A DNA stretch of 64,000 bases from Cenococcum geophilum (taxonomy: Eukaryota). A program made the position numbers and the translations under genes. How positions within the stretch are numbered: position 1 is the stretch's first letter; the number at the start of each line of letters is the position of its first letter. The stretch is taken from the NCBI GenBank assembly GCA_050273025.1, contig CP158635.1:20522001-20586000 (forward strand), read 5' to 3'. This document shows positions 28,001-57,651 of the stretch, piece by piece. Under the pieces are notes generated by a model that ran no database searches, was not told the origin of the DNA, and saw nothing but the letters and a program-made list of their open reading frames with translations.

Positions 28001-29587
28001 GTACGGCTTAGAAGGAGGTTAAGAAGTTAATAACTTAGAGTACTAGCTTGCCGCTAAGATATATAACGTTAACAATAATATAGAAGTTAAAGTTGTAGTT
28101 ATCTTTAAGGGTAAACTTAAATTGGCTAGGGGGCTTCTGGTTTATTTAGTAGTAATAATAGTACTTTATAAGATACTTAATTGCCTTAACCTTAACTTTA
28201 TAGCCTACTTATTAAAGAACCCTAAGTAATTAATAAATAGATAGGTGGCTAAAACGATGGTGTAGTTAACGTAACTCTAACTTAGTTAAATGGCTCTAAG
28301 TAATACTTTTTTCTAGTTAATAAAGGAGTAACTAGGGGTAATCCTACTTACCTATAACGGGCACCCAATTATCTCCCTAAACGAGTATATTCTTAAGGTT
28401 ATTAAGCTTAATACCTAATTTATTTATATCTTTAATACAAAATAGAAATGGGGTATTTGTAGAAATAACGTAGAAAGTGATATGCCTTAAGGGGGTTTGG
28501 ACCCTAATTGTGCTAAAAGAGATTATAGTACCCTTACTAAAATAAATTGTATATTAGCCTGCCGTTAAATAGTTAATCTAAATAGAGCTATTAAGCTACT
28601 AAAGGGCTTGAACTTAAGGTTTTCCTACTATAAATACTCCTGCGGCTCTAGTATCTAGTATAATACTATAAAAAAAACATTCGCTAAGTATTTATTATTA
28701 AAGAAGAACGCAGAACTCTCCCTTAGCTTATTAAAAATATTTAACTTTATAATAGAATAGAGCGTAGATTAGTTATTAAGAATAGTAACGGTTTATATAC
28801 TATTTACCTTACTATACTTAGTAAAGTATTAGTTAGGAGAGTAGTCCTTAATTTCTATATCTATAAGGAGCTGTTTAGCCTTATTAACCTTACCCTTAAG
28901 ATCTTTTACGCCTTTATATTAAACTAGAAAGCTTTAAAAGTAAGCTATAGTGACCTTATAATTTCTAACGTTTCTTATACTTTAGCGAAACTTATTATAT
29001 ACCTCCTTTTATTTATTAAAAGAATGCCTAGTTAACTAATAATTCGGTTTCTTATAAACGTAGCACTTCTTTTAGTAATTACTTTAAAATAAACCTCTAT
29101 AAGGGCCTCCACCTTTACCTTATAGTTGTTAATTATACCCTCTACCGTATTATTTACCCTAGCTACTATATATTCGATTAGTCTAGTTATAATTATATTA
29201 GTTAGGCGGGTTGATTAAAGTAGGTTAAAGTTAGGCGTTAAATTGCTATACTTTTTAAGAGCGTAAAGTAGTGCTAATAGAAGATCTTAATTAAGTATAT
29301 ACTCCTTTATAAGTATTTATAGGATTAAAAAGTATAAGGTTATATTCTTTAACGCCTTAATATACGCTAATAATTTAATTACATAGGCTAAAATCCTCTT
29401 AATATAATTCGGATAAACTATGCTAAATTATCTAAAGTTAATTAAAGAGCTTTTAAAGATAATTAAGCTAAGGGATACTTAGGTTTATAGCAATAATCCT
29501 TAAAAAGGTAGTTTCTCTCTATTCTAATATATACTGCTACTTATTCTCTTTTATTTTAAAGTGGTATTTTAACTTATATATTATACG

Positions 29588-32500
29588 TGTTACGGACGCT
29601 TTAAGTATAATGTTACGACTACTTAGAGAAGAGTTGGAAGAAGCTAGTTAGTTAATAAGAGCACGGTCTAGGATGGATTTGGTAGAGCTATATAATAAGG
29701 AATGGTAATTAAGGTTACATAATATGCTACGTATTAAACGAGAGGAATGAGAGGAACTTACGTACCTTATATATAATACGTATATTACGTATAAGAAGGA
29801 TTTTATAGGAGTACGGTTGTGTATTTAAGGACCCTTAGTCCCTACCTAGATAGTTCCTTCCTTGTAGTAATTCTTAGAATATAATTAGAGTTAATTTATT
29901 AGGCAACCACTCCACTAGTTATTATTATGTTGTTAACTTTAATTTGTATTACCTATATACCTAGCCCATTAATAAGCCTACCGTAGTACTTGCTATAAGG
30001 TTCCGTTATATAATTACTACCTAGTTATAGTATTAAATATAGAAAGTTAAATAATATGCCACTAAAAGTAGCTACTATAACGCCATTGACGGCGGCAACT
30101 ACTTTAGGGTTAGGAGGTGACACTAATATAGCGGACACTAACTTATAACAACCTATAACGGTAGAACAATTATAAAAAATAGTTAACTAGTTAATAGAGA
30201 ATAATGCAGCACTTAAAAATAGGATTAATGGGATAGGTATAGTAAAGGTTAAGTTACTATCGATTGAAAGATTTTTAGGAGAGAGATTGAAGCTTAAAGG
30301 ATTCCTTATATAAATGCACTTTAAGGTCGCGTAAGAGGGAGTAAAGCTGGCGACACCTATAGATTAAATAGCGTACGCAGGGCTATTCTTAATAGGAAGA
30401 GTACTTAAATAGTTTAAGCCTTACCTTATAGAAATATAAGTAAATGGAATAATAACTATAAACCAAGAGGTACGGTTTATATTTTTAAGCTAGAACGGAT
30501 TTATAGAATAACTTACGTAAATATTTGGAGACCTAGAGGCAGTAGCTATAGCGGAAAGAAAACTCTAAGATATTACGCAATGAACCTTAGCAATTAAGTA
30601 TATAACGTAGTTTTAAATATTAGCAATATAAGTTAAGTGGAATAATAGGGCGCTTATGGCACAGTATAAGTAAGGACTTAAGGCTAAAGTTTAAAATATA
30701 ATTATCCTAATAGAAGATGCGGACACCCTAAGGGAACTAATAGATTAAGCGATAAAGATTAATAATAGGATCTACTAAAGGGAATAGACTAAGAGAGGTT
30801 AGGATAGAGTTCTATAGTTATATAAGACGCAGAGTACGTAACGACTAAAGCTAAGTTAGAAACTATGGTATGGCGCAGAGCTAATGGACCTAAGTAGTAC
30901 TAAAGAAGCCTATAAGAGATGGAGTAAGAAACTATAAAAACCTAGAGGTTAAGAATTTAGTAATTATAGGACTAAGAAGCAGAGGCTAAACTAGGGATCT
31001 TAACAGTAGAAGACGTTTAGGCGGACTTTATAGCAAAGTTAATGGTTTAAAGACGGAGCTTATATAAATTACGGAAAACAAGGTTACTTCGCGAGGGATT
31101 ATAAAGATGGTTAGAATTACTATATAATAAAGGGAACTAGACTAATAGTAGAAGACATATATGTATAGGGGAACGATAGTGTACTATAAGGAATAAAAGA
31201 GTATTCAATTAGAAGTTTTGCGTTTTGTTATAATAACGCATACTAAATTTATAAAGATGCTAAGTATAGCGTAAGCTATTAGCTATAAGAGCTAAAATCT
31301 ATAAAGTGTAGAGGAACTAATAAACCAGTTCGCAGATTGGATATTAAGGATAATAAATTTAATATAGGCGAAACATTTTATAATAATAAGGCGATAGAGG
31401 CGGCTTATTAGGAGCACGTAGACCTTAGAGATGTTATACTAGAGGTAAAGGATAATCCCACTATAGAATAGGGAACATTAGTAGGGATTAAGACCCTACT
31501 AGACACGATGTTTATCGCTTCGCGAGACACAAGAGAAGTAGAATAGCGAACTACTTCGGCACTTAATAAAGGCAAAAGGCTAAAGGCTTAAGATTCTTAA
31601 GACGAGATAAGAGACGACTAAGATTCTTAAAGTAAGATAAGGCACACCTAAGGACCTATAATGGACGAAAACCGATAAAGTAGGGCAGTAGCTTAGTTTA
31701 AAGATATATAAATAAGCTTGGGATAAGAATTCCTAACGGCATAAGATTCTTAAGACGAGATAAGTAAGATTTAAGACTCTTAAGATGAGATAAAAACACT
31801 ACGGACGCCTAGTTAGACTAAGGCGGGAGCTAAGCTTAAGTTAGAAGCAAGCTTAGGATTAAAGAATCTAAGAGACTAGCAATTTAGAGTACGAATTAGG
31901 ACACCCATAAGTAAGAGGTAAGGGGCTTTTTTATAGATTAGAGAATCTATAATATAAACAGTAGTTAGACTAGGAGATAAATATATGGACCTAGAGGACC
32001 TACTAGGAGAACGCAGTGTTTGGCCTAAAGATTAAAAAGTTAATACTAAGATTAAGAAGTAAGGTGACTTTAAGGATCTACTTATAAGACGCGAAAGAAA
32101 AGAAACTATGGAGGAATTTAGAGTAAGAATTACCTTATAGCAAGAACAGAAACTAGATAAGAGATCTAATATATTGGGACGTATAAGGAACAGAGCACTA
32201 GTATAAAGAATCACTAATAGACCTAGAATAGGCACACTAAGAGCTAAGTGGCTTACTAAACTGGAGTAAGAAGAGGATTTAGGGATTTCTACTAGGTTTG
32301 AGGAACGACATACTAAAGGCTGTTACGATATAGTAATAAAGAGATATTTCCTTATAAATAAGCCGTATATACTTAAGCAGTTATACCAAAAGTAGTATAG
32401 ACAACGACACAATAATAAGTAGGAAGATTTCTATATATGGTTAGACGAAAAAGTTATCTAAGACTACCTAATTATAGAAAAGGCTATGACTTATATTAAA

Positions 32501-35500
32501 GGAGCCTTAATTATAATATTAAAGGATTTAGAGGAGTAATTAGAGGACTAGAGAAGTAAAAGGCGAATCTTAGTACCTGCGAACGAAGTTGCAACGCTTA
32601 GATTAATACGAGATAGGTTTAAACTTAAAGATAAAGACGAGCTAAGAGTTGACCTAAGATATTAAGCATATTATACACTATTGTAGATAGTATATATGGA
32701 TGATGCGTGTAATATATATAGAGCACTAAAGGACAAAAATTGGAAGTATCTAATAAGGATGTATTGGAGGACGGATAAGGTAAAATATTAAAACGCTAAG
32801 TATATATATAGTTGGCACCTAGTAGAAGTTTAAGAATAAGGAGACTTAATACTTTAACTAGGAAGATTCCTTATAGAAGAATACCTAGATAAACGATAAT
32901 GGTAGGAATGTCCAGAGAATACCTATCTATGGTATATTAAAGATAAAAAGCGAACTAAGTATTAGCCTAAGATGGACTAAGTATAAATAGGATCTAGTAG
33001 CTAATAGTTGGGAAAAGTAGAGGCCTATAGGACTAGAGGGAGCTAGTGGTAGAGCCTTAGACCCTTAAAGGAATTTAAGGACGGTATCTAAATTTACGAG
33101 TTAAATGGCAAGATTAATAGTTTAAGGCATTAATAGATAGTGGAGCAATAAGGAACTATATCTCGCTAGCAGCAGTTAAAAGAATGGGATTACTATATAG
33201 ACAGAAAGAACGACCTTACCTATTAGTAACAATTTTAGGAGATCTAATAGCCTATAGAGGAGGTATTATTAATCTTAAAATAGGACCAATTTAGTTAACT
33301 ATTAAAGGAAGATAAATCGAGATATCTTTTAATATATTACTATTAGGAAATAATAAGGCAATACTAGGAATGCCTTAGTTATAGGAATATAATCTAAAAA
33401 TCAACTAGATTACAGGTTAAGTCAATATTAGGGATACTCAACGCCATAAGGTGCGATAATAAGCCAAGTTAGTATAATACTAAGTAGGAGCAACCTACAA
33501 AGAAATGGAAAAAGGGCTAAGCTATATACTAAAGAGATACCATAAGTATGGCAAGAAGTTATGGTTACTTAAGAGTAAAAAGCTGTTAGAGTATATAGCA
33601 TGGGACTATAAGATAGAATTAGAACTAGGAATAAGTCTAAGGTTCTTTTTAATCTATAAGCTTACCAAAGAGAAAGGTAGAGCATTAAAAGAGTTTATTT
33701 AAGAAAACTTACGGAAGGAATACATTAAACCATCGCAGTTATTAGCGGGTTATTCAGTACTATTTATACTAAAGAAGAATAGTAAACTAAGGCTGTGTAT
33801 TAACTATAGATAGTTAAACAGTATTATAAGAAAGGATAGGTATCCTTTACCCTTAATTAGCGAGATCTAAGATAGGATAGGTAATGCGCAAATCTTTATA
33901 AAAATAGATCTAAGATGGGCGTACTATTAGATTAGAATTAAGAAAGGCGACGAATAAAAGGCAGCCTTTAGGTTAAAGGAAGGACTGTATAAACCATTAG
34001 TTATATAATTTAGGCTTATAAACGCACTAGCAACGTTTTAGAAGCGTATTAATAATATATTAGGAGAATACTTGGATGAATTTATTATAGTATACTTTAA
34101 TAATATTATTATCTACTTAATAGCTAAGAAAGAATACGGAGAATACGTTAAATAGGTTTTAAAGAGACTATAAGAAGAATAGATACTAGTAGCAATTAAG
34201 AAATGCGAGTTCTTTACTAGGAAGACCGATTTTATAAGATTTATTATTAAACTAGGCCAACTTAGTATAGATCTAAAGAAGATCGAGGCTATAGTAAATT
34301 AGTAAGAACTAGAGAATGTTACGCAGTTAAGATTATTCCTAGGGTTTTATAATTACTATAGAAGGTTTATAGCGTAGTGGTTAAAAGATATTAAACTACT
34401 TACGCGATTAATAAAGAAAGAAGAACTATAGGTATGGGGAGAGGAATAGTAGGGACTCTTTAAGAAAATTAAAGAGTTGTTTACTTAAGAGCTAGTTCTT
34501 AAGATCTATTAACTAGGACTAAAAACGGTTATAGAGATAAATGTATTAGACTTTATACTAGGGGCATACTTTATATAAAAGTATTTAGATGGATGGCACC
34601 TAGTAGCATACTATAGTTAGAAAATAACACCACTAGAGTTAAACTACGATATCTATAATAAAGAGTTATTAGGTATAATTACAGCACTAAAGAAATAAAG
34701 GGCATTCTTATAAGGTATAGAGAAACTATTTATAGTTAAAATAGATTATAAGAACCTAATAGGATTTTTAATAATAAAGGAACTTAACTAAAGACAGGTT
34801 AGATGGGTAGAGATACTTATAGAATACTATTTTAAGATTTAGTATACCAAGGGTATAGACAATACGCGGGCCAATACGTTAAGTTAAAAGGCTGAATTAT
34901 AAAACGACAAGAAGCTATTAGGGGCTTTACTATAAAGAGACATAGACGGGTTAATTAGATATAATTATCCGAAAATCGCAGTAACTTAAGAAGATAAGCT
35001 AAAAAGAGTTTATAAGTTACTAAAAAGCTTTTAGGTATAAAGAATTTTAGAAGTATAGCTAGAAGATCTATAGTCGGATATATACGAAAACTAAGAAGTA
35101 AAGTATATCCCAAGAAGTATAGCGGAGTAGTTTATAGAAGACTTCTATAAGGGACTAACTTAAGGATATAATAGAGCCACGGGCTTAGTATTAAGACTCT
35201 AAGAGGAGTACATTATTAATGGAATCTAGAGGATAGCTAGGAAGGTCGCTAAGGAGTATTTAGATTGCTAAAGAAATAAACTAACGAGGTATAAGCTATA
35301 TAGAGGGCTATAACCTATTAAAATACCAGAGAGACTATAGGAGGTTATATTATAGGACTTTATTATTAAGCTACTAAAGTTAAGAGACCCTATTACTGGA
35401 CAGGATTATAACGCGATTTTAGTAATAGTAGACAAGCTTACGAAGTAGGGATACTTTATAGCCTATATAGAAGAAATCTTAGCAGAGGATATCGCTAGAA

Positions 35501-37535
35501 TCTATATTAAAGAAGTATTTGTAAGATATAGAGCACTAAGTAAAATTATATTGGATAGAGATCTAAGATTCGTAGTAGTATTCTAGAAGGTATTTTTAGC
35601 GGAGTAAGGAGTTCAAGCAGTAACTTTCACTGTATATTATCCGCAGATAGGCGGTTAAACGGAAAGATTAAATTAGATACTAGAGCAGTATCTAAGATAT
35701 TATGTCAATCACGTATAGAATAATTGGGTATCGTTGTTACTAGTTATATAGTTTACGTATAACGCAACACCTTAAGAAGGAATAGGTATGTTACTATTTA
35801 AGGCAAATTACGGATATAAGCCGAGAACATTATTATCGCTATATTAAGTAAAGAAAATGAGTAGCACAGCTAAAGAAAGAATAAAGACATTAATAAATCT
35901 TTATATAGACCTTATAGAATTAGCAAAGGAAGTATAAGAGAAAATAAAAAGGTACTATAATGCTAAGAGATCTAAGGGACTAGATCTTAAGGAGGGAGAT
36001 AAAGTGTGGCTATTATATAAAAATTTTAAGAGTTAACGACTAAGTAAGAAGTTAAACTACGTTAGACTAGGACCTTTTAAAATTACGCAGAAAATTTCAC
36101 CGGTCACGTTTAAGTTAAACCTACTAGCTAAAATAAAAATCTACCCTATATAATATATTGTAATACTAGAGCTAGTATACGGGAATATTAAGCTACTAGT
36201 CTATAAGGCAGACATATATAGAGGACAAGAGGAAGATAAATAGTAAGTTTTAAGGATCGTTAGCTATAAGGATATTAACGATAAAACATAGTATAAGGTA
36301 AAGTGGATAGGCTATAATAAGACTACTTAGGAGCTACTAGAGAATTTAAAGAATGTTATAAGAAAGGTATAGGAGTATCGGAAGAAAGTAGGTTAGGCAA
36401 CATTAATAAAGAAGAATCGCTAAAAAATAAGTTACCTAAGGGGGACCTAGGAAGAGCGACTACCGAACTACTTAGAGTTATTCCCTTTATAGGAAGAGAG
36501 TTGGTTCTCTTATTACTAAGTTCCTAAAGACCTTACTTTATAAGTTTTTACTCCTTAGAACGGACCTTCTTACGAACTTTCTTAAGACGAAGTAGCTGAG
36601 TAGACGCCGTAATGCAAGTATTTAGGGCCTTCTGCTTAGCGTTATGGGAACGCTTAAGCTTGGCAAGAGCCTGCGCTAGATTACCGTTAAGCTTCGCAGC
36701 CGTAGATTAAACACGAGACCCTATAATAAATTACTTAGGGAACTTAAAGACTACTAGGAGTTATAGGACGCGTATACTTAGCGTTAGAAGTAGAGCGAAC
36801 ATCGCAGGACGATTAAATATTTGCTTTGGTGCACTCCGAATAAGAGGAGGGTTGCTAAGATAAAGGACTCGCCAACGCAATATAAATTAACCCCTTTCTC
36901 GTATAACGAGAACACGGAGATAGTATGATTTTACTAAGCAATAATATAGCAGTAATAGTGCGGGCACGACGTTGCGCGTGTAAAGAAGAAGATGCTTTAG
37001 GTATAATAAGTAATGACATTAACTAAATTAATTAGGCGGACATTATACCTCTAGTAAACGACTTGGAGATGCTAGAAATCTTTAAGGACGAAGATAGAGA
37101 GAAGGGAGATAGTGTTACGGACGCTTTAAGTACAATATTATAACTACTTAGAGAAGAGTTAGAAGAAGCTAGTTGGTTAATAAAAGCACGGTCTAAGATA
37201 GATCCGGTAGAGCTATGTAATGAGGAATAGTAACTAAGGTTATATAACATACTATATATTAAATAAGAGGAATAAGAGGAACTTACATACCTTATATATA
37301 ATACGTATATTATATATAAGAAGGATTTTATAGGAGTACGGTTGTGTATTTAAGGACCCTTAGTCCCTATCTAGATAGTTCCTTCCTTATAGTGATTTTT
37401 AGAATACAATTAGAGTTAATCTATTAGGTAACCACTCCACTAGTTATTATTACGTTGTTGACTTTAATTTGCATTACCTATATACCTAGCCCATTAACGA
37501 GCCTACCGTAGTACTTGCTATAAGGTTCCGTTATA
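29588..37535 (+). mobile_element. Full-length Ty3/Gypsy chromovirus-type LTR retrotransposon related to 1110-8033, RIP-inactivated
   Basis: LTRs 29588-30010 and 37113-37535; TSD ATACG. gag ATG ~30056, CCHC ~31060-31102, protease ~33135, RT ~34093, RNase H, integrase, chromodomain ~36240-36380. Confidence 0.96.
36480..37019 (-). pseudogene. Antisense spliced accessory gene in Gypsy 3' region (Zn2Cys6-like + coiled coil), RIP-mutated
   Basis: ATG at 37019. PCSR(C)TRKGLI(C)IALASP...S(C)SECTKANIxSSCDV, then an intron (~36721-36776), then WSRVxSTAAKL...RLKKVRKKVRSKExKLIKxGL. 3' end approximate. Confidence 0.75.
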
Positions 37536-42930: not shown

Positions 42931-43945
42931 ATTGTAACGTGTCCCGCACTACGTCGCCATACGGCCAAAAAGATAAAGAGTGATTGCGAACCTATTGCGA
43001 CTCTTGCGGGACCTAATATATATACTCTTACATATATATAGACATTTACCTTTAGCTTCTATATAATTACGCCATTTAGAAGCCTCTTTTCTATATTTTA
43101 GTAGTAGTTAACACCTTCTTTTTACTAATAGCTTCCTCTACTATATTATTATAATCCTTACTAAAGAACTCTACCTATTTATTAGCTACTACTTTAGTTA
43201 AAATATTTACTGCTTAAAGCGCCGTCTAAATAACTATAGTAATTTTAGCGTTTTTAGTATTAGTGGATATATTAATAGTTATAGCGGCCTTATATTTAAC
43301 ATTAAGATTAACCCTTTAAGCCTTTCGTTTATGCTTTAACTATACTTCTATTATTTTCTTTACTTCGCATTATTTATCTATATCGTTTACTTTCTTTAGG
43401 TATTATAGGATCCTTCGGATTTAATAACGCAATAATAGTAGTTAATTAATTAAGCCAGAAAGATTAAAGGCTATAATGTTTATAGCTTAATATATATTTT
43501 AAGCAATAAATACTTAGTATTTAAAGGCTCTAAATGGAATAGCTAGGATATTACTAAATATTTATATTTAGGATAAAGGCTTAAAAAATCTTTGGGCTAT
43601 TCTATAATATAAAGAGGTGTCGGTATAGGTAGTATAGGTTTAATAGTAAGGTCTACTTCTTTAGGCGCTTTAGAAGTGTTCTTTATAGTATTTTTAGGTG
43701 CTTTAGCTTTCCTCCTATGCGTTATGGCGCTAACTAAAATAAGAAATAATATCGGCTTTAAATGGCTTCGAGATATAGGCGACAGCGATACATTAGCATG
43801 CAGGATGGGTGTTCTCATGCGCGAGTATAGAAAAAAGGTTCAAACAGGCGAGGATTCGGTGGTTGATCATGGTTTCTGACATTTGATCGTCTTTTTCCGA
43901 AGCGACTGTAAGTAAATTTTGGGCGTTGGCGGTTGGCCCACCATA

Positions 43946-44454
43946 CAGCGATGTTCACGACCAGCTTCACCCCCCCCCCTTTAGCGAGCGCTGCGAGATT
44001 TCAAATTCGCTACGCGCATCCAATCTCGCTTGATTGCCGCCAGCTGTACATAGTAATTGTAGCGAAGCCATATGCTTGGCTGCAAGAACGTCGCGATCCC
44101 GCAGTGTCGTGATCTTCACCAGATATCGTGAGGTTTCCACCCGTATGATATTGCTAAATTTCATTGACCTCTCTGCAGAGACAGCGTTGTATTCGCGTTC
44201 TGGCGGCCACAAGGGAGGCGTAGTTACGGTGGGAGAAGGGGGAGAAGAGGAAGCGTACGTCTTTAATTTAATTCCCCTAGCCAACCAAGGCGTTTCTCTA
44301 GGGCAACCAAAAAGGTCCTTGCGTGTGGCTACAGCCGTTCGCTACAGGTACTACGTACGGCTAGTAGCAATTAAGCGAGGTTGGATACGCGTAGCGAATT
44401 TAAAATCTCGCAGCGCTTGCTAAAGGGGGGGGGTGAAGCTGGTCGTGAACATCA
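43946..44454. mobile_element. MITE with ~125-bp TIRs; the last 3 bp of its right TIR (CTG) are displaced to 56214-56216 by the Crypton array
   Basis: Left TA|CAGCGATGTTCACGACCAGCTTCACCCC...; right ...GGGTGAAGCTGGTCGTGAACATCA + CTG|TA. TA on both outer flanks. Confidence 0.85.
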
Positions 44455-44825
44455 ATAGTATGTCCACGGTTTGATTTGTATGGCTAAATTAGCCGCTAAG
44501 TCACAATTTGGTAGGCAGGAGGCCCGTGCGCTCAGCGCCATGTGGATATTACCCCATATTCACAGTCAATCTTTAATCGCCAGCAACGCCGTAGCAACGT
44601 CGCGCTCTTAACACCCGTTAAGTGGTATACGTAGAGCTGTCCAAGGGCTCTCTGCTCGCACTAGGATGGCAAGAATTGGCCGTAGGTTAATAGAGATATT
44701 TGCGTTTTAAATTAGGCGCTACTATTATATAAGTACCCTACTAAACTTATACTGCACTAAAATAAGCCCCTAAGGGGCTATAGATAAAGGCTTTAAGAGG
44801 ACTCCTTAAAAGTTAAATATATATA

Positions 44826-47050
44826 CTATTTTAAAGCTTTTTTACCTACTTAAAGCCGTTTATAAAGCTAATCTAGCGAGCACTATATCCGCTTCTGCTG
44901 TTAATTAACCTACTATATAGCCGCTTCCTTGCTAACCCTTTAGGCCTACGCAACCCGCCTAATTTCCTTAATAACCTTAAGCTATAGGGAGTACTATTAG
45001 AGCTCGTTCTACCAGCTAGCCTACTATTTACTACCCTATTTAGAATCTAGCGCTGCTATAAAAGGATTACCTCTAAGCCCTTTAGTCTACTCGCGCTAAA
45101 GGGCCTATATAGACTTTATTATACGGCATATACAATATATAGGCGGCTACTTAGGCGGCTGCTTGGGCTTAGGCCCTTACTATAGCTATAGCTATAGCTA
45201 TAGCTATAGCGGCGCTAGTAAAGGGGAAGCTATAGTGCTTACCTAGGCTAATATATTCTAGCTTAATTCCGTAATAGATAAAGGCGCTAGTAGACGTACT
45301 ATTGGTAGACGTACCGTTAGTAGGTATACTGTTAGACGTAAATATACGGATACTAAAGGGACCTTAAGCTAAAAGGTAAGGCTGCTAAATATAAGTAATT
45401 AAAGCTATAAAGACTGCGCCTACTAGGACTTGGCTATATAGTTAAATAACACCTATAGCTTGCGTACTTGGGCGTCTATAGTCTTTAGGCGGTTTATAAT
45501 AGCTAGTATAGCCTAGTAAAGTATTAATAGCTAGCTAGGGCCTTCTTCCTCCTACTATAGGTAGGCTTTAACCTTCCGCGTAAAGGGTAGATAGGCCTTA
45601 TACTAAAAAACTAGGTGGTTTTATATAGGGCTACTTAGGAATATCTTATAGAGGACTACTAAGTTCTATAGGATAACCTCCTAGAGATAAAATAGGAGGT
45701 TTATAGTGCCTATAGCCGTAAGGTTGTTAACCTAGCCAACCTAAAGGCTAAACTAACCCTTTTAGATGTTTAGCTTTAGCTAGATTATTAACAGTAGTAT
45801 ATTAAGGGGGGCAACGCTTGCCCTATAAATCTTAAAGCAGCCTATCTACGGCAAATAGCCGGCTATTGTCCGTATAAACTCCCGCGGTAGCGAGTTTAAG
45901 TAGTAGCTAACTATTTACTCCTAGTTTTACCTACTAGCGCGTTTAATCTGGTCCTTGCTAACCCCTTTTAGCTTCACTATTTTAGCGCTAGCGCTTCGCC
46001 TAATATAGGTCTTCTTTTATAAAAAGACGCTAATAGCCTAGAATGCCTTAGTAACCTACTCCCGCTATAAGTTATACGAGAAGGCCGTCTTACGGTCCCT
46101 AGCGCTGCTCTTAATTAGGCGGATATTATACTACGCTAACCACTTATTAAAGTCTAGGAACGGCTTATTACTAAGGTCCTAGTAGTATAGGAGGTAGAAA
46201 GCTAGCCCGCTAAGTATATAGATAAGCGGCTTCTTATTATATAGAGCTCTAATAGTCTTAAGGCGGCTATATTAGTTCTACTTACTAGCGTATATAGTAA
46301 ATATTAGGGGCATATAGCGCGTAGGACCTTCCCCCTTAAACTTAAAGGTAAATAGGTCTAAGATCTCGGCGGAGCGCCTATTACTACCGCGGGTAAATAT
46401 ATAGTAGCCTAGTAGGATATCTACAAGTATATAAAGGTAGTATTCTAGTAAGGAGTCTCTACAGGCCTATAGCTCGCGGCAAACACTCTTAAACTCGTCC
46501 TCTATATATCCATTAAGTAGTATATCCCTACCCTTATCTATAAACTACTCCTTTTCCCACTACGCGTCCCTCCGTTATAGAACCTTTAGGTAATCCCTAA
46601 TATTATCCTCCTACGGGGACTAGTAGCTATTTATCCTTATACCCTTCTACATCTAGTAGAAGTCTATTAGGGTAGTAATATAGCCATAAACTAAGCGCTA
46701 GGAGAGCCGCGTCTTATTCTAGGGCATATTATTACTAGCCTTACGGCTTTTTACTTTTAGTGGCTGGCCTATAACCTCCTTAATAAAAAAAAGAAGTAGC
46801 TTCTCTTCTATAACGGTATTACTATTATAGTACTACTTCCGCTTATAAAAGGCCTAGAAAAACGTGTATTAGTTATAAGTATACTACTCTATAAAGCACC
46901 TACCTACTTACCTTAAACTCTTTCTACTTCGGCTTATAATTTAAAGACGTATTTTTAGATCTCTCGGAATATATAAGGGTAAAGATACTCTACGCGTTAG
47001 CGCGTAGTTCGGCATTATTCGTAACGTTAATCTTTACATAACTAATTAAT
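44826..47050 (-). pseudogene. Crypton tyrosine recombinase with C-terminal GCR1_C-like domain, copy 1
   Basis: De-RIP motifs RPKNTS.NY.PKQKEF, DTVTEEKLLLFL, DKGRDTLLDGY, RRSAEISDL, KKTHIGRS, RRAGRWN, GCYLNSLPR, LWREWTEGL.GNPSVAALDSKWG. Intron 46854-46911. Start codon not resolved. Confidence 0.88.
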
Positions 47051-47765
47051 GGTATTTTTAAGATATATAGGACGCTGCTAGAGAAGCTACGCCCTAAGGG
47101 GGGGTTCCTATTTTCCTATATACGCAAATATAGACTAGGGAGAAAAGGTAGAGAAAGTATACCTACTAAATAAGTAACTTTACCGTATAGGGTAAATAAA
47201 CGGGCGTATGGCTGGGCTAATAGGCCAATAGTACGCGCGTATTAGCGACTTGATTAGTAGGGGTAAAGACATTTAAAGATGTCCACGGCTTGGCTATAGG
47301 CTTGGCCGTAGATATCCGCGAATGTTAATGGGGGTCGTATATATTATATACGGCTCAGCGACTAAGCGGGCGCTTAGCTAAGCCGTAAACACTAATAGTA
47401 TATCTACGGTTCGATTTATATAGCTAAATCAGCCGCTAAGTTATAATTTGGTAAGTAGGAGGCCTATACGCTTAGCGCTATATAGATATTACCCTATATC
47501 CACAGTCGATCTTTAATCGCCAGCAACGCCGCAGTAACGTCACGCTTTTAACACCTATTAAGCGGTATACGTAGAGCTGTTTAAGGGCTCTCTACTCGCA
47601 TTAGGATGGCAAGAATTAGCTATAGGTTAATAGAGATATTTACGTTTTAGATTAGGCGCCGCTATTATATAAGTACCCTACTAAACTTATACCGCACTAA
47701 AATAAGCCCCTAAGGGGCTATAGATAAAGGCTTTAAGAGGACTCCTTAGAAGTTAGATATATATA

Positions 47766-49990
47766 CTATTTTAAAGCTTTTTTACCCGCTTAAAGCCGTT
47801 TATAAAGCTAATCTAGTAAGCACTATATCCGCTTCTACTATTAATTAACCTACTATATAGCCGCTTTCTTACTAACCCTTTAGGCCTACGCGACCTACCT
47901 AATCTCCTTAATAACCTTAAGCTGTAGGGAGTACTATTAGAGCTTATTCTGCTAGCTAGCCTACTATCTACTACCCTATTTAGAATCTAGCGCTACTATA
48001 GAAGGATTACCTTTAAGCCCTTTAGTCCACTCGCGCTAAAGGGCCCGTATGGACTTTACTATATAATATATACAATATACAGACAGCTGCTTAGGCGGCT
48101 ACTTAGGCTTAGGCCCTTATTACGGCTATAGCTATAGCTATAGCTGCGGCGGCGCCGGTAAAGGGGAAGCTATAGCGCTTACCCGGGCCGATATATCCTA
48201 ACTTAATTCCGTGATAGATAGAGGCGCTAGTAGACGTACTATTAGTAAATATACCGTTGGTAGGTATGCTGTTAGACGTAAATATATAGATGCTAAAGGG
48301 ACCTTAAGCTAAAAGGTAAGGCTGCTAGATGTAAGTAATTAAAGCTATAAAGACTATGCCTACTAGAACTCGGCTATACAGTTAAATAACGCCTATAGCT
48401 CGCGTGCTCGGGCGTCTATAGTCTTTAGGCGGTCTATAATAGCCAGTATAGCCTAGTAGAGTATTAATAGCTAGCTAGGGCCTTCTTTCTCCTATTATAG
48501 GTAGGCTTCGACCTTCCACGTAAAGGGTAGATAGGCCTTATACTAGAAGACTAGGTGGTTCTATATAGGGCTACTTAGGAACATCTTACGGAGGACTACT
48601 AAGTCCTATAGGATAACCTCCTAAAGATAAAACAGGAGGTTTATAGCGCCTATAACTATAAGGTTGTTAACCTAGCTAACTTAAGGGCTAAACTAACCCT
48701 TTTAGATGTCTAGCTCTGGCTAGATCGTTAATAGTAGTATATTAGGGGGGGCAACGCTTGCCCTATAAATCTTAAAGCAGCCTATCTACGGTAAATAGCC
48801 GGCTATTATCTGTATAAACTCCTACGGCAGCAAGTTTAAGTAGTAGCCGACTATCTGCTCCTAGTTTTACCTACTAGCGTATCTAATCTAGTCCTTACTA
48901 ACCCCTTTTAGCTCTACTATCTTAGCGCTAGCGCTTCGCCTAATATAGGTCTTCTTCTATAAAAAGACGCTAATGGCTTAAAATGCTTTAGTAACCTACT
49001 TCCGCTATAAGTTATATAAGAAGGCCGTCTTATAGTCCCTAGCGCTGCTCTTAATTAGGCGGATATTATACTACGCTAACTACTTACTAAAGTCTAGGAA
49101 CGGCTTATCGCTAAGGTCCTAGTAGTATAAGAGGTAAAAAGCTAGCCTACTAAGTATATAGATAAGCGGCTTCTTATTATATAGAGCTCCGATAGTTTTA
49201 AGGTAGCTATATTAGTTCTACTTACTAGCGTATATAGTAAATATTAGGGGTATATAGCGCGTAGAACCTTTCCCCTTAAACTTAAAGGTAAATAGGTCTA
49301 AGATCTCGGCGGAGCGCCTATCGCCGCTATAGGTAAGTATATAGTGGCTTAGTAGGATATCTATAAGCGTATAGAGGTAGTATTTTGGTAAGGAGTTTCC
49401 GCGGGTCTATAGCTTGCGGTAAACGCTTTTAAACTCATCCTCTGTATATCCGTTAAGTAGCGTATCCCTACCCTTATTTATAAACTACTCCTTTTCCTAC
49501 TACGCGTCCCTCTATTATAGAACCTTTAGGTAATCCCTAACGTTATTCTCTTATAGGGACTAGTAGCTATTTATTTTTATACCCTTCTATATCTAGTAGA
49601 GGTCCGTTAAGGTAGTAATATAGCCGTAAACTAAGCGCTAGGAGAGCCGCGTCTTATCCTAAGGCACGTTATTACTAGCCTTACAGCTTTTTACTTTTAG
49701 TGGCTAGCCTATAACCTCCTTAACAAGGAAAAGAAGTAGCTTCTCTTCTATAATGGTATTGCTGTTATAGTACTGCTTCCGCTTATAAAAGGCCTAGGAA
49801 GATACGCGTTAGTTATAAGTATACTACTTTATAAAGTACCTACCTACTTACCTTAAACTCTTTCTGCTTTGGCTTATAATTTAGAGATATATTTTTAGGT
49901 CTTTTAGAACACATAAGGGTAAGGATACTCTACGCGTTAGCGCGTAGTTTAGTATTATTTACAACGTTAATCTTTACGTAACTAATTAAT
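47766..49990 (-). pseudogene. Crypton tyrosine recombinase, copy 2
   Basis: Colinear with copy 1 at +2940 bp. Confidence 0.88.
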
Positions 49991-50705
49991 GGCATTTTTA
50001 AGATATATAGGACGCTGCTAGAGAAGCTGCGCCCTAAGGGGGGGTTCCTATTTTCCTATATACGCAGATATAGACTAGGGAAGAGAGGTAGAGAAAGTAT
50101 ACCTACTAAATAAGTAACCTTACTGTATAGGGTAAATAAACGGGCGTATGGCTGGGCTAATAGGCCAATAGTACGCGCGTATTAGCGACTTAATTAGTAG
50201 GGGTAAAGACATTTAAAGATGTCCACGGCTTAGCTATAGGCTTGGCCGTAGATATCCGCGAATGTTAACGGGGGTCGTATATATTACGTGCGGCTCAGTA
50301 ACTAAGCGGGCGCTTAGCTAAGCTGTAAACACTAATAGTATGTCTATGGTTCGATTTGTATGGCTAAATCAGCCGCTAAGTCATAATTTAGTAGGCAGGA
50401 GGCCCGTGCGCTTAGCGCTATATAGATATTACCCTATATCTACAGTCAATCTTTAATCGCCAGCAACGCCGCAGCAATGTCGCGCTCTTAATACCCGTTA
50501 AATAGTATGCGTAGAGCTGTCCAAGGGCTCTTTACTCGCACTAGGATGGTAAGAATTAGCCATAGGTTAATAGAGATATTTGCGTTTTAAATTAGGCGCC
50601 GCTATTGTATAAGTACCCTACTAAACTTATACCGCACTAAAATAAGCCCCTAAGGGGCTATAGATAAAGGCTTTAAGAGGACTCCTTAAAAGTTAAATAT
50701 ATATA

Positions 50706-52930
50706 CTATTTTAAAGCTTTTCTACCCGCTTAAAGCCGTTTATAAAGCTAATCTAGCAAGTACTATATCCGCTTCTACTGTTAATTAACCTACTATATAG
50801 CCGCTTCCTCGCTAACCCTTTAGGCCTACGCGACCCGCCTAATCTCCTTAATAACCTTAAGCTATAGGGAGTACTATTAGAGCTCGTTCTACCGGCCAGC
50901 CCGCTATTTACTATCCTATTTAGAATCTAGCGCTGCTATAGAAGGATTACCTCTAAGCCCTTTAGTTTACTCGCGCTAAAGGGCCTATATAGACTTTATT
51001 ATACGGCACATATAATATACGGGCGGCTACTTAGGCGGCTGCTTGGGCTTAGGCCCTTACTACGGCTATAGCTATAGCTATAGCTGCGGCGGCGCCAGTA
51101 AAGGGGAAGCTATAGTGCTTACCTAGGCTAATATATTTTAGCTTAATTCCGCAATAGATAAAGGCGCTAGTAGACGTACTATTGGTAGACGTGCCGTTAG
51201 TAGATATACCGTTAGATATAAATATACGGATGCCGAAGGGACCTTAAGCCGAAAGGTAAGGCTACTAGATATAAGTAATTAAAGCTATAAAGACTGCGCC
51301 TACTAGGACTTAGCTATATGGTTAAATAACGCCTATAGCTTACGTACTTGGGCGTTTATAGTCTTTAGGCGGTCCGTAATAGCTAGCACGGCTTAGTAGA
51401 GTATTAATAGTTAACTAGGGCCTTCTTCCTCCTACTATAGGTAGGCTTTAACCTTCCGCGTAAAGGGTAAATAGGCCTTATACTAGAAGACCAGGTGGTT
51501 TTATATAGGGCTACTTAGGAATATCTTATAGAGGACTACTAAGTCCTATAGGATAACCTCCTAGAGATAAAATAGGAGGTTTATAGCGCCTATAGCCGTA
51601 AGGTTGTTAACCTAGCCGATTTAAAGGCTAAACTAACCCTTTTAGACGTCTAGCTCTAGCTAGATCGTCAACAGTAGTATATTAGGGGGGGCGACGCTTG
51701 CCCTACAAATCTTAAAGCAGCCTATTTGCGGCGAATAGCCGGCCATCGTCCGTATAAACTCCCGTAGTAGCAAGTTTAAGTAATAGCTAACTATTTACTC
51801 CTAGTTCTACCTATTAGCGCGTTTAATCTGGTCCTTGCTAACCCCTTTTAGCTTTACTATTTTAGCGCTAGCGCTTTGCCTAATATAGGTCTTCTTTTAT
51901 AAAAAGACGCTAATAGCCTAGAATACCTTAGCAACCTACTCCCATTATAAGTTATACAAAAAGGCCGTCTTACGGTCCCCAGCGCTGCTCTTAATTAGGC
52001 GGATATTATATTACGCTAACTACTTACTAAAGTCTAGGAACGGCTTATTGCTAAGGTCCTAGTAGTATAGGAGGTAGAAAGCTAGCCCGCTAAGTATATA
52101 GATAAGCGGCTTCTTATTATATAGAGCTCTAATAGTCTTAAGGCGGCTATACTAGTTCTACTTACTAGCGCGTATAGTAAATATTAGGGGTATACAGCGC
52201 ATAGGACCTTCCCCCTTAAACTTAAAGGTAAATAGGTTTAATATTTCGGCGGAGCGCCTATTACTACCGCGGGTAAGTATATAGTAGCCTAGTAGGATAT
52301 CTATAAGTATATAAAGGTAGTATTCTAGTAAGGAGTCTCTGCAGGCCTATAGCTCGCGGTAGATACTCTTAAACTAGTCCTCTATATATCTATTAAGCAG
52401 TATATTCCTACCCTTATCTATAAACTACTCCTTTTCCTACTACGCGTCCCTCCGTTATAGAACCTTTAGGTAATCCCTAATATTATCCTCCTACAGAAAC
52501 TAGTGGCTATTTATTCTTATACCCTGTTATATTTAATAGAAGTCTATTAGAGTAGTAATATAGCCGTAAACTAAGCGCTAGGAGAGCCGCGTTTTGTCCT
52601 AGGGCATATTATTACTAGCCTTACGGCTTTTTACTTTTAGTAGCTAGCCTATAACCTCCTTAATAAGGAAAAGAAGTAGCTTCTCTTCCGTAACGGTATT
52701 ACCGTTATAGTACTACTTCCGCTTATAAAAGGTCTAGAAAAACGTGTATTAGTTATAAGTATACTACTCTATAAAGCACCTACCTACTTACCTTAAACTC
52801 TTTCTACTTCAGCTTATAATTTAAAGACGTATTTTTAGGTCTCTCGAAATATATAAGGGTAAAGATACTCTACGCGTTAGCGCATAGTTCGGCATTATTT
52901 GCGACATTAATCTTTACGCAACTAATTAAT
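50706..52930 (-). pseudogene. Crypton tyrosine recombinase, copy 3
   Basis: Colinear with copy 1 at +5880 bp. Confidence 0.88.
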
Positions 52931-53645
52931 GGCATTTTTAAGATATATAGGACGCTGCTAGAGAAGCTGCGCCCTAAGGGGGGGTTCCTATTTTCCTATA
53001 TACGCAGATATAGACTAGGGAGGAGAGGTAGAGAAAGTATATCTACTAGATAAGTAATTTTACCGTATAGGGTAAATAAACGGGCGTATGGCTAGGCCAA
53101 TAGGCTAATAGTACGCGCGCATTAGCGACTTGATTAGTAGGGGTAAAGATATTTAAAGATGTCTACGGCTTAGCTATAGGCTTGGCTATAGATATCCGCG
53201 AATATTAATAGGGGTTATATATATTACGTGCGGCTTAGCAACTAAGCGGGCGCTTAGCTAAGCCGTAAACACTAATAGTATATCTACGGTTTAATTTATA
53301 TAGCTAAATCAGCCGCTAAGTTATAATTTGGTAGGTAGGAGGCCCGTGCGCTTAGCGCTATATAGATGTTACCCTATATCCACAGTCGATCTTTAATCGC
53401 TAATAACGCCGCAGTAACGTCGCGCTTTTAATACCTATTAAGCGGTATGCATAGAGCTGTCTAAGGGCTCTCTACTCGCACTAGGATGGCAAGAATTAGC
53501 TATAGGTTAATAGAGATATTTACGTTTTAGATTAGGCGCCGCTATTATATAAGTACCCTACTAAACTTATACCGCACTAAAATAAGCCCCTAAGGGGCTA
53601 TAGATAAAGGCTTTAAGAGGACTCCTTAGAAGTTAGATATATATA

Positions 53646-55870
53646 CTATTTTAAAGCTTTTTTACCTATTTAAAGCCGTTTATAAAGCTAATCTAGCGAG
53701 CACTATATCTACTTCTACTATTAATTAACCTACTATATAGCCGCTTCCTTACTAACCCTTTAGGCCTACGCGACCTACCTAATCTCCTTAATAACTTTAA
53801 GCTGTAGGGAGTACTATTAGAGCTTATTCTGCTAGCTAGCCTACTATTTACTACCCTATTTAGAATCTAGCGCTACTATAAAAGGATTACCTTTAAGCCC
53901 TTTAGTCTACTTGCGCTAAAGGGCCTGTACGGACTTTACTATATAGCATATACGATATACGGGCGGCTGCTTAGGCGGCTGCTTAGGCTTAGGCCCTTAC
54001 TGCGGCTATAGCTGTAGCTATAGCTACAGCGGCGCCAGTAAAGGGGAAGCTATAGTGCTTACCTAGGCCAATATATCCTAACTTAATTCCGTAATAGATA
54101 AAGGCGCTAGTAGACATACCATTAGTAAATATACCGTTGGTAGGTGTGCTGTTAAACATAAATATATAGATACTAAAGGGACCTTAAGCTAAAAGGTAAG
54201 GCTGCTAGATGTAAGCAATTAAAGCTACAAAGACTGTGCCTACTAGAACTCGGCTATATAGTTAAATAATGCCTATAGCTCGCGTGCTTAGGCGTCTATA
54301 GTCTTTAAGCGGTCTATAATAGCTAGCACGGCCTAGTAGAGTATTAATAGCTAGCTAGGGCCTTTTTCCTCCTACTATAGGTAGGCTTCGACCTTCTGTA
54401 TAAAGGGTAGATAGGCCTTATACTAGAAGACTAGGTGGTTCTATATAGGGCTACTTAGGAATATCTTGTGGAGGACTACTAAGTCCTATAGAATAACCTC
54501 CCAAAGATAAAATAGGAGGTTTATAGCGCCTATAGCTATAAGGTTATTAACCTAGCTAACTTAAGGGCTAAACTAACCCTTCTAGACGTCTAGCTCTGGC
54601 TAGATCGTCGACAGTAGTATATTAGGGGGGGCAACGCTTGCCCTATAAATCTTAAAGCAGCCTATCTACGGTAAATAGCCGGCTATTGTCTGTATAAACT
54701 CCTACGGCAGCGAGTTTAAGTAGCAGCCGACTATCTGCTTCTAATTTTACCTACTAGCGTATTTAATCTGGTCCTTACTAACCCCTTTTAGCTCTACTAT
54801 CTTAGCGCTAGCGCTTCGCTTAATATAGGTCTTCTTCTATAAAAAGACGCTAATGGCTTAAAATACCTTAATAACCTACTTCCGCTGTAAGTTATACGAG
54901 AAGGCCGTCTTATAGTCCCTAGCGCTGCTCTTAATTAGGTGGATATTATACTACGCTAACTACTTACTAAAGTCTAGGAACGGCTTATTGCTAAGGTCCT
55001 AGTAGTATAAGAGGTAGAAAGCTAGCCCACTAAGTATATAGATAAGCGGCTTCTTATTATATAGAGCTCTAATAGTTTTAAGGTAGCTATACTAGTTCTA
55101 CTTACTAGCGTATATAGTAAATATTAGGGGTATATAGCGCGTAAAACCTTCCCCCTTAAATTTAAAAGTAAATAGGTCTAAGATCTCGGCGGAGCGCCTA
55201 TTGCCGCTATAGGTAAGTATATAGTGGCTTAGTAGGATATCTATAAGCGTACGGAGGTAGTATTTTAGTAAGGAGTTTCCGCGGGCTTATAGCTTGCGGT
55301 AGACGCTCTTAAACTCGTCCTCTATATATCCGTTAAGTAGCGTATTCCTACCCTTATTTATAAACTGCTCCTTTTCCCGCTACGCGTTCCTCTATTATAA
55401 AACCTTTAGGTAATCCCTAACATTATTCTCCCGCGGGGACTAGTAGCTGTTTATTTCTATACCCTTCTACATCTAGTAGAGGTCCGTTAGGGTAGTAATA
55501 TAGCCGTAAACTAAGCGCTAGGAGAGCCGCGTCTTATCCTAGGGCACGTTATTACTAGCCTTACGGCTTTTTACTTTTAGTGGCTAGCCTATAACCTTCT
55601 TAACAAGGAAAAGAAGTAGCTTCTCTTCTATAATGGTATCGCCGTTATAGTACTGCTTCCGCTTATAAAAGGCCTAGGAAGACACGCGTTAGTTATAAAT
55701 ATACTACTTTATAAAGCACCTACCTACTTACCTTAAACTCTTTCTGCTTTGGCTTATAATTTAGAGACATATTTTTAGGTCTCTTGGAACGCATAAGGGT
55801 AAAGATACTCTACGCGTTAGCGCGTAGTTCGGCATTATTTGCGACGTTAATCTTTACGCAACTAATTAAT
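53646..55870 (-). pseudogene. Crypton tyrosine recombinase, copy 4
   Basis: Colinear with copy 1 at +8820 bp. Confidence 0.88.
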
Positions 55871-56481
55871 AGCATTTTTAAGATATATAGGACGCTGCTA
55901 GAGAAGCTGCGCCCTAAGGGGGGGTTCCTATTTTCCTATATACGCAGACATAGACTAGGGAGGAGAGGTAGAGAAAGCATACCTACCGGATAAGTAACCT
56001 TACCGCATAGGGTAATAAACGGGCGCACGGCTGGGCCAATAGGCCAATAGTACGCGCGCATCAGCGACTCGATTAGTAGGGGTAAAGACATTCAAAGATG
56101 TCCACGGCTTGGCTGCAGGCTCGGCCGTGGACATCCGCGAATGTCGACGGGGGTCGTATGTATCACGTGCGGCTCAGCGACTGAGCGGGCGCTCAGCCGA
56201 GCCGTGAACACCACTGTAGTTGATCGAAGGCCGAACTTCTCGCTTTGCTCCCCAAGAACCTCCACTAGTGGAGATCCTACCAAAGCTAAACTCATCCTTG
56301 ATCAAGGAACCTACAGCCTCGTATCCATTATTTTGGACGCTCTTACATACGGCCTGGATTCTGGGAACTAGAACGCAAGACTAAAAGCCCAGCCAATTCG
56401 CGCAAGTCGCAAAGCCATACCCATATATCACCGTTCCTGAGCACCTTTTAGAAGACCGCAAGTGGATTTCGACTAGGGGAA

Positions 56482-57651
56482 ATGATGGAAGAAGACGATG
56501 ATGAGTTCTACGGTCATGATGGGACGGCCAATGCTCCTGGCAGCGGTGATCAAAGCAAGCAGGACGCCTCTGCCAACGGCCAGGCCAATAACAAGGACGA
56601 CAACTTGGACGAAGAGCTCGAGTCTGGAGAGGAAGAAGAAGAGGGCAGTGATTCAGTATGCGCCGACGGCTCTATCTTTAGCTCTCACATTTACTGACTG
56701 TTTTTTCAGGATATCGAGATCATCACTGATCGACCCCAAGCTCAAAAGCCTATATCGTGAGTTCTCCCAATCTCAATCACCCCAAATTTTCAGCATACCT
56801 CTTGGAGTTACCTTGTAAGAAGTACTAACTATCATAGCCAATCCACGGTTGACTCTATAAAAGACCCCCGCGCTACCGACCAAACCTCGAGTCGCTCGCA
56901 AACACACCAGCAACAATCCGCACCCAAAGCCACCCTCTCAGCTCCCACCGCCCCTTCCGCACCACAGCAGCCAGGCTCCAGTTATCCCGAAGTGCGCACC
57001 TCCACAATTGACGTCAATGCCGACCCAGTTTACCCACCCGTCGGCAAGCCCATCTCCCAAACCGACATCGACGCCGACCTCGCGGAGAACACGAAGCCAT
57101 GGCGACTTCCTGGCGCTGACCAATCCGACTACTTCAACTATGGCTTTGACGAATTCACCTGGGAGATGTACCGGCAGCGACAAGCGACCATGACCGGCAC
57201 GCTCGCGACCCAGAAAGCCGAAACGGCGCAATTCCAGCAAATGTTCGGCGGCGCGACGTCCGTCCCCTCGACCTCTCCCGCCCCGCCCGTCCCCGGCGCG
57301 CCCACGGGCCCCGCTGCCCAGCAGGCCAGCATGGCGAACCCCATGGCCGCGATGATGGGCATGCCCGGCATGCCCGGCAGCCAGGAGGAGATGGCCACCG
57401 CGATGCAGGCTGTCATGATGCAGCAGGGGATTACGGATCCCAGCCAGCTGGATTTTAATACCTTCATGGCGAGCTTTCAGCAGCAGATGGCGGGCGGTGG
57501 CATGCCCGGACAGCAGGCGCCGCAGCAGCAGCAACAGGCGCAGGCACAAGGCTATGGACAGGGCTACGGGAATTATGCGCAACAGCAAGGCGGAGGACAG
57601 CAGTATGGTGGAAGGGGACAAGGTGGACGCGGTGGAGGGAGAAGATGGTAG
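56482..57651 (+). CDS. FIP1: Pre-mRNA polyadenylation factor Fip1 (exons 56482-56655, 56710-56756, 56838-57651)
   Basis: Acidic N-terminus, DIEII motif, Fip1 motif KPWRLPGADQSDYFNYGFDEFTWEMY, Q/G- and RGG-rich tail. GT-AG introns with branch sites keep the frame. Confidence 0.93.

Follow-up and report, generated by a model that had tools for sequence, protein, structure and literature searches.

The stretch of DNA analysed here (the window) comprises 64,000 nucleotides of contig CP158635.1 of Cenococcum geophilum (assembly GCA_050273025.1, positions 20,522,001 to 20,586,000, forward strand). At window positions 44455-56213 it carries four direct, head-to-tail copies of a CryptonF-type tyrosine-recombinase (YR) DNA transposon that is dead through repeat-induced point mutation (RIP), with start-to-start steps of 2940, 2940 and 2940/2939 bp. 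All four units lie on the minus strand. The 3′ end of U1 (44455..47394, 2,940 bp) adjoins a miniature inverted-repeat transposable element (MITE). U2 (47395..50334) and U3 (50335..53274) are also 2,940 bp long, and U3 carries all three transversions of the array. U4 (53275..56213, 2,939 bp) has a 1-bp deletion after 56013, and its 5′ end adjoins the last 5 nt of the MITE. A history in which a circular form of the element inserted into the MITE tip, and a two-unit block that RIP had already killed was later doubled, is as a whole the reading that we consider likely.

When the units and their flanks were aligned with MAFFT, homology began at 44442 and ended at 56213. This stretch corresponds to the four units and, in addition, a terminal redundancy of 13 bp, GYCGTGAACAYCA, whose left copy reads GTCGTGAACATCA and whose right copy reads GCCGTGAACACCA. 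If the crossover falls in the CA dinucleotide, 44455-56213 are the exact bounds of the elements. Pairwise identity between units is 0.883-0.935, so that they differ at 6.5-11.7% of positions; each pair shows 191-345 differences, 0-3 of which are transversions, and there is a single 1-bp indel overall. Spacing and alignment thus confirm the four colinear units of 2940 bp reported in a preliminary description of this DNA, apart from the missing base of U4, as well as its statement that spacers and a conventional target-site duplication are absent, with only the 2-nt CA duplicated. The units were unreported by TRF, whose longest period was 500 bp. Beyond the four units, no further Crypton copy was found within the window.

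The recombinase frame and its inactivation by RIP

None of the four units contains an open frame of at least 80 codons. When U4 was read through in six frames with X at stops, Pfam matches were found in one minus-strand frame only, to NDC10_II (E 6e-42) and GCR1_C (E 0.013), and no other Pfam domain was hit. Across the units, the NDC10_II match has E values of 1e-36 to 1e-42. The frame lies on the minus strand at 44826..47015 in U1, 47766..49955 in U2, 50706..52895 in U3 and 53646..55835 in U4. It comprises 729 codons plus a stop in U1, a length that uses an upstream ATG and hence a tentative start codon; intact relatives have 628-830 codons. NDC10_II scores, against a cut-off of 26.3 bits, are 128, 130.1, 126.3 and 145.1 bits in U1 to U4. 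GCR1_C, with a cut-off of 23 bits, shares its frame with the YR domain and scores above the cut-off in U2 (29.8) and U3 (30.1) and below it in U1 (20.7) and U4 (16.9). The intact relatives P0001 and L004 score 302 and 294.5 bits for NDC10_II and 70.9 and 69.7 bits for GCR1_C, respectively.

A word-seeded protein search returned 23 homologues, all of which carry both domains; the best is 62% identical over 96% of the query, and the only named one, a hypothetical protein, comes from Zopfia rhizophila. Against the intact proteins, all four units align in one frame, without a gap or frameshift, up to a common stop after GRKALK, and their in-frame stops sit where the intact proteins have W, Q or R. 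This gap-free colinearity indicates that the open reading frame (ORF) is unspliced. The number of premature stops is 74 in U1, 77 in U2, 76 in U3 and 72 in U4, and 56 of these are common to all four units. In every unit the His of HxxR has become Tyr and the conserved Trp a stop, and in U3 only, the Arg of HxxR has become Gln. The RRSAEI box and the Tyr of GCYLNSLP are intact in the units. These aligned positions are the ones we take to be catalytic.

The element lacks a reverse transcriptase, long terminal repeats (LTRs) and long terminal inverted repeats (TIRs), has one ORF, and its unit ends share only TG/CA, all of which agrees with CryptonF. The pairing of a YR with a GCR1_C domain, proposed in the preliminary description together with a profile search as its check, was therefore found in Pfam as expected, with NDC10_II at 126-145 bits in all units. 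Of the R..HxxR..W..Y motifs listed there, the Arg box and the Tyr are kept, and the His and Trp are lost throughout. The ORF had also been described as spliced, which its minus-strand, indel-free colinearity with intact homologues contradicts. A C/G-preferring consensus of the four units was tried as a way to an intact ORF and rejected, as 56 premature stops persist in the recombinase frame and each frame contains 67-80 stops across the unit. The suggestion that an intact ancestral recombinase could be rebuilt was thus not upheld, since these 56 stops mean that the four copies alone do not restore the gene.

RIP of tandem duplications in filamentous ascomycetes produces transitions only, prefers CpA and yields a high TpA/ApT ratio. 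The array has a TpA/ApT index of 2.1 and a (CpA+TpG)/(ApC+GpT) index of 0.35, against 0.75 and 1.24 in the right flank. The mutated fraction is 0.40-0.59 at CpA, 0.25-0.31 at CpG, and 0.03-0.08 at CpT and CpC. Together with the near-exclusive transitions, these indices show that the array was mutated by RIP, as had been proposed: the changes are C-to-T and G-to-A transitions, they are biased to CpA, and the right flank is normal. The pattern shares the transitions, CpA preference and high TpA/ApT of known RIP; CpG is the second-best context here, which is nothing unusual. A (CTATAG)x5 repeat at 45180-45210, present in U1 only, is probably the RIP product of a GC-richer short repeat.

A Fip1-like gene lies beside the array at 56452-57651 on the plus strand (Pfam Fip1 motif, 71.8 bits). 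Some 250 bp separate its start from the 5′ end of the array, and the two are divergently oriented. From 56214 onward the RIP indices are normal, which indicates that RIP did not spread into this gene. The effects of the array on its host at this locus are probably small.

Junctions, candidate recombination site and target

In coding orientation, the element runs 5′-GTGTTCACGGC...ACCGTGGACAT ACTATTG-3′, and every junction between units reads ACCGTGGACAT-ACTATTG-GTGTTCACGGC. Two inverted 11-bp arms, identical at 8 of 11 positions, thereby enclose a 7-bp spacer. Cre/loxP and Flp/FRT sites consist of inverted arms of 11-13 bp around a spacer of 6-8 bp. The Crypton junction shares the inverted arms and short spacer with these sites, and it differs in that its target would need only one arm and 2-3 nt of the spacer. 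The RIP-mutated, lox/FRT-like layout of arm, spacer and inverted arm occupies 47382..47410 at the U1|U2 junction. It is identical and free of indels at the U2|U3 junction (50322..50350), the joint that block doubling would have made, and is laid out as in the other junctions at U3|U4 (53262..53290).

The arm belongs to an 11-mer, RCCGTGRACAY, of which five copies surround each junction, three of them accessory ones at about +80, +100 and -120. In U4 two of the accessory copies form an inverted pair in the 5′ non-coding part, at 56098-56108 (-) and 56124-56134 (+), and this pair is present in each unit; the fifth copy, at 44556..44566 (-) in the 3′ non-coding part of U1, also recurs in each unit. 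In the window, a RIP-tolerant form of the 11-mer is matched 21 times where 2.9 matches are expected, and none of 100 shuffles attained 21.

The comparison set consists of 67 related loci from metagenome contigs, and a DNA-level match is present in 65 loci. The strict 11-mer was counted 68 times in 462,616 bp of related loci, whereas simulations averaged 0.2 and never exceeded 2; in most of 39 full units its copies occupy five fixed positions. The 3′ arm and spacer are found even in the distant intact relatives L004 and L012. In L006 the arms have changed and are still mutually inverted over 7 nt, the single hint of covariation. Insertion boundaries coincide with the last 2 nt of the spacer. 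The preliminary description had equated each internal junction with the junction of a circle, and the precise joints with their putative core fit that proposal.

Exact head-to-tail junctions occur in 20 of the 65 loci, 29 junctions in total, and a divergent subfamily (L057 and L032), outside this count, is also arrayed. The recurrence of tandem arrays in relatives favours an element-driven route to arrays. Differences within the related arrays are almost all transitions. Intact ORFs of 600-830 codons are found only in distant copies (L003, L004, L005, L006, L008-L010, L012, L015, L028, L030, L047 and L060). L003 and L004 are one locus in two contigs, with an intact Crypton ORF of 680-683 codons, and L003 is without the first ~40 nt of the element 5′ end.

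The flanks of related units point to a preferred target. The final dinucleotide is TG in 14 of 19 5′ flanks and TA in 4, the latter being compatible with RIP of TG; one of the 19 (L022) is an internal junction. Of the 27 3′ flanks listed, five of which are internal junctions of the divergent L057 and L032, 19 have AT as their first two bases, and 11 start with ATGTT or ATATT. These counts indicate that the element inserts at about TG^ATGTT, which corresponds to the end of its own spacer followed by the start of its own arm. Such targeting fits the Crypton model in which a terminal motif recombines with a near-identical target, as given in the portions of PMC3212892 and PMC9977147 drawn on here.

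In the window, the target lies in a MITE-like foldback element at 43946..44454, whose arms of at least 96 nt are 88% complementary and reach the tips, with the 11-mer at 43951-43961 and 44442-44452. A 10,368-bp contig of run X5, a root metagenome, joins 43943 to 56217 with the shared letters TA and reads CCACCA-TA-GTTGATCG, without the MITE and without the array. This empty site identifies the foldback element as a TA-flanked MITE composed of 43946-44454 and the right-tip remainder CTG at 56214..56216, which the array has cut off; according to the same contig, its target duplications are the TA at 43944..43945 on the left and the TA at 56217..56218 on the right. The MITE totals about 512 bp and combines a TA duplication, TIRs, small size and multiple copies. 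A CAGTG tip such as it has is typical of Tc1/mariner elements. The insertion point of the array is a TG dinucleotide (CA on the plus strand) 5 nt inside the right TIR. In coding orientation this point reads CAGTG^ATGTTCACGAC, where the MITE tip copies the Crypton arm. The Crypton 5′ end in turn resembles the MITE tip (15 of 18 bases identical), so the composite retains a TIR-like end. Among the matches listed for runs X6 and X9 there is no joint across the array; a contig of X6 matches from 56217 after 67 unmatched letters, from which nothing is concluded.

In L040, L018, L035 and L055, arrays or units likewise have this MITE at their 3′ end. The copy in L040 matches at 94% over 475 bp and has its array on the other tip, and that in L018 matches at 96% over 285 bp. 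In L055 each MITE tip holds a Crypton unit, the two units being inverted, and TA lies on either outer side. A further MITE copy at L055 1-146 is separated by 2 nt (TA) from the MITE that bears these two units, so that two MITEs lie side by side. The array of L040 was considered as an ortholog of the window locus and rejected, as it has an LTR element in its far flank, uses the other MITE tip and belongs to another clade.

History of the array

The order in which the four units arose can be read from derived (T/A) states found in exactly two of them. U1 and U3 share 67 such states (pattern 1010) and U2 and U4 share 74 (0101). The remaining combinations are rare: U1 and U2 share 15 (1100), U3 and U4 share 4 (0011), U2 and U3 share 8 (0110), and U1 and U4 share 7 (1001). 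Alternate pairs therefore account for 141 sites, whereas the other two pairings reach 19 and 15, and the pattern is spread evenly along the unit. Mutational hot spots would lift all pairs alike and do not explain this excess. The excess also holds in contexts that RIP rarely mutates. At CpT, U1 and U3 are co-mutated at 19 sites against 2.9 expected (p 8e-14) and U2 and U4 at 17 against 2.4 (p 5e-13), with 3-7 in the other four pairs. At CpC the counts are 4 against 0.6 and 6 against 0.4, with 0-2 in the other pairs, and at CpG they are 68 against 30.6 and 65 against 29.0, with 18-47 in the others. In a tree of 39 units, those of the window form one clade with the topology ((U1,U3),(U2,U4)). 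Six premature stops are private to U1 and U3 and five to U2 and U4.

The sharing of RIP states, stops included, by alternate units indicates that a mutated two-unit block was copied whole and that RIP continued afterwards. The claim that an active element laid down the array, which was mutated only later, does not hold for the last step, since U1 and U3, and likewise U2 and U4, inherited RIP mutations in common. If the precursor had exactly two units, the breakpoints of the doubling fall at the array ends, within the 13-bp redundancy, that is, at a half-site. The outer ~300 bp on either side are less mutated than the rest: pattern 0111 clusters in the first 294 bp, pattern 1110 in the last 294 bp, and this weaker RIP at the outer ends is consistent with a real chromosomal array that has these ends.

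The same alternation is found in two independent arrays. In L038 and L040, which overlap on one contig, alternate units are 0.961 and 0.954 identical, against 0.912-0.919 otherwise, and in L049 the values are 0.943 against 0.893-0.898. The close pair is adjacent in L056, and no structure is seen in L022, L041, L044, L057 and L066.

These observations can be arranged in a single series of events. An excised circle would integrate by site-specific recombination into the arm-like tip of a MITE. The full site regenerated at the boundary or junction would favour the arrival of a second unit, which would give a dimer. Tandem duplication would then trigger RIP, which would kill both units, and the dead dimer would later be doubled as a whole block. 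Recombinase supplied in trans may have carried out this doubling, either by exchange of array ends between sister chromatids or by excision of a dimer circle and its re-integration. Alternatively, host replication or recombination could have acted by microhomology through the 13-bp end redundancy. RIP would have struck again after the doubling.

Four other explanations were weighed against this series of events. It is quite improbable that an active element placed all four units, as a multimeric circle or as serial circles, and that RIP then acted on each independently. Arrays are common in the family, the junctions are precise and carry the putative core, and the arrays of L022, L041, L044 and L066 have about equal pairwise distances, as if placed before RIP; all of this would suit such an origin. 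However, alternate units share rare-context states (19 and 17 at CpT against ~2.5, 4 and 6 at CpC against ~0.5), the excess is absent from the other four pairs, and the shared states include premature stops, whereas fresh circles from an active copy would not bear the mutations of a neighbour. An appearance of common descent could also arise as a by-product of RIP, if units i and i+2 pair with the middle unit as a return loop and are co-mutated. The alternating pattern in three arrays would agree with this, the pairing geometry being our own inference, and we nevertheless consider it very improbable. Co-mutation by chance needs near saturation, but only ~3-8% of CpT/CpC sites are mutated per unit, and about half of the CpT/CpC mutations of each unit are common with its alternate partner. 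Moreover, the shared changes comprise C-to-T as well as G-to-A (28/39 in pattern 1010, 40/34 in 0101), so no single strand-specific episode accounts for them, and to our knowledge RIP does not copy mutations between partners.

The host may instead have made the array, by amplifying a single insertion through slippage or unequal exchange at the end repeats, with no role for the recombinase. A 13-bp near-identical direct repeat flanks the insertion and would be enough for a microhomology duplication with the same precise junction, and the last doubling involved dead units. Even so, this is unlikely as a full account: exact arrays occur in 20 of 65 loci, including targets that share only ~2-7 bp with the element end, and whole-block doubling recurs in two other arrays. 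Unequal crossing-over would yield chimeras and adjacent sister units rather than block doubling, but no chimeric units were seen in the window array and the sister pattern is uniform along the unit. That the assembler merely expanded a repeat is scarcely credible. Short-read contigs do all break inside the array and none spans it. Yet every unit has a pattern of its own, with differences at 6.5-11.7% of positions, which an assembler is unable to invent, and RIP is weaker at both outer edges of the array, as at a true chromosomal position. In addition, short contigs of run X1 are unit-specific, match with 0 mismatches and have near single-copy depth (85-94, against 57.5 in the flank), although the depth of short-read contigs is not usable as a copy number; a 20,818-bp contig of this run covers 56190 onward. 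Run X1 is probably the source of the assembly, and for this reason its support is not independent.

Several points weigh against insertion of a circle followed by doubling of a dead dimer. RIP-like changes at 283 sites are fixed in all four units. Of these, 266 lie in CpA or CpG and are as expected from parallel saturation, but 16 lie in rare contexts, so light mutation of the founder may have preceded the first duplication. Among relatives, each of the 35 full-length units is likewise RIP-dead, and none has an ORF longer than 115 aa. A part for the recombinase in the step from one unit to two is only one possibility, and the doubling itself would be compatible with recombinase in trans and with host repair alike. 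The junction is a lox/FRT-like candidate site predicted from sequence features alone. The empty site comes from a single metagenome contig whose left side is 63 nt long, and the count of four units rests on the assembly.

Related elements, significance and other repeats

CryptonF elements were reportedly described by Goodwin et al. in 2003. Integrative elements can form tandem integrants, in which integration regenerates sites for further copies or for excision as monomers or multimers.

CryptonF elements combine a YR and a GCR1_C domain in one protein, have no long terminal repeats, carry terminal repeats of 4-6 bp and are proposed to move through a circle that targets a sequence like one terminus (Kojima & Jurka 2011, PMC3212892). 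The window element shares the domain pair, the absence of long terminal repeats, a very short end repeat, a target that is similar to one terminus and a circular intermediate as the proposed form of movement. It differs in an apparent 11-7-11 inverted-arm core with three accessory arms, in a crossover repeat of 2-3 nt (TG/TTG) and in the frequency of head-to-tail arrays among its relatives. The portions of PMC3212892 considered do not describe an inverted-arm site or tandem arrays for Cryptons; Additional file 1 of that article lists Crypton termini and may bear on the site claim. An inverted-arm site is likewise not described for a Crypton in the portions of PMC9977147 considered, and Crypton arrays are not described in the titles and abstracts of the Crypton papers that were searched.

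CryptonF-1_cRei of Chlamydomonas has a terminal motif that targets a near-identical one (CACCG, CAYCG), excises cleanly, increases in copy number and inserts near genes; it is active and dispersed (Lopez-Cortegano et al. 2023, PMC9977147). The window element also lies near a gene (~250 bp upstream of the Fip1-like gene) and shows short-motif targeting, but it is dead, arrayed and RIP-mutated, and its target is TG^ATGTT. MarCry-1_FO of Fusarium oxysporum combines a Crypton with a Tc1/mariner-type element, has TIRs and TA duplications, encodes a DDE transposase and is mobile as a single unit (PMC3212892). The window Crypton is likewise joined to a TIR/TA element; here, however, the partner is a non-coding MITE of ~512 bp, and the Crypton lies 5 nt inside its TIR tip. 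Compared with the portions of the literature used, the new features are the architecture of the site, the use of a MITE tip as target, and the commonness of arrays together with their block doubling; the kind of element itself is known.

Among the orders of eukaryotic DNA transposons, Cryptons are the least understood; in the literature portions used here, their ends are so far given as a few shared bases, without a defined recombination site. The window locus and its relatives offer a 29-bp candidate site, a preferred target in the MITE tip, and evidence of arrays as a normal state of the family. RIP mutations serve as a built-in clock, which dates the doubling of the array as a block to a time after the death of the element and bears on how transposons become tandem repeats. 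A broader proposal, which we put forward tentatively as possible rather than probable, is that the family uses a lox-like site, which integration regenerates and at which the recombinase builds, doubles and reshuffles arrays, also in trans on dead copies, and that the TIR tips of a mariner-type MITE have been adopted as multi-copy attachment sites that were already in place. If this is true, Cryptons would be the eukaryotic counterpart of tandemly integrating prokaryotic elements, there would be a direct path from a transposon to a satellite-like array, and the origin of Crypton-mariner fusions such as MarCry would be explained.

Other repeats occur elsewhere in the window. An element of ~8 kb at 29587-37533, with end repeats of ~425 bp (29587-30011 and 37113-37533), looks like a RIP-mutated LTR retrotransposon. 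Its relatives are found in many metagenome loci, and one is inserted into the MITE in L040. A second, partial copy of this repeat family lies at 1338-8023, as determined by blastn against L016, L022, L031 and L040. Two AT-rich stretches with strand asymmetry (2001-8000 and 30001-36000; GC skew 0.20-0.35, AT skew 0.13-0.23) coincide with these two LTR-like copies, and the asymmetry may reflect strand-biased RIP or the composition of the repeats themselves. Another repeat family, at 15154-19353, is common to L035, L036 and L054, with 81-87% identity over up to 4.2 kb.

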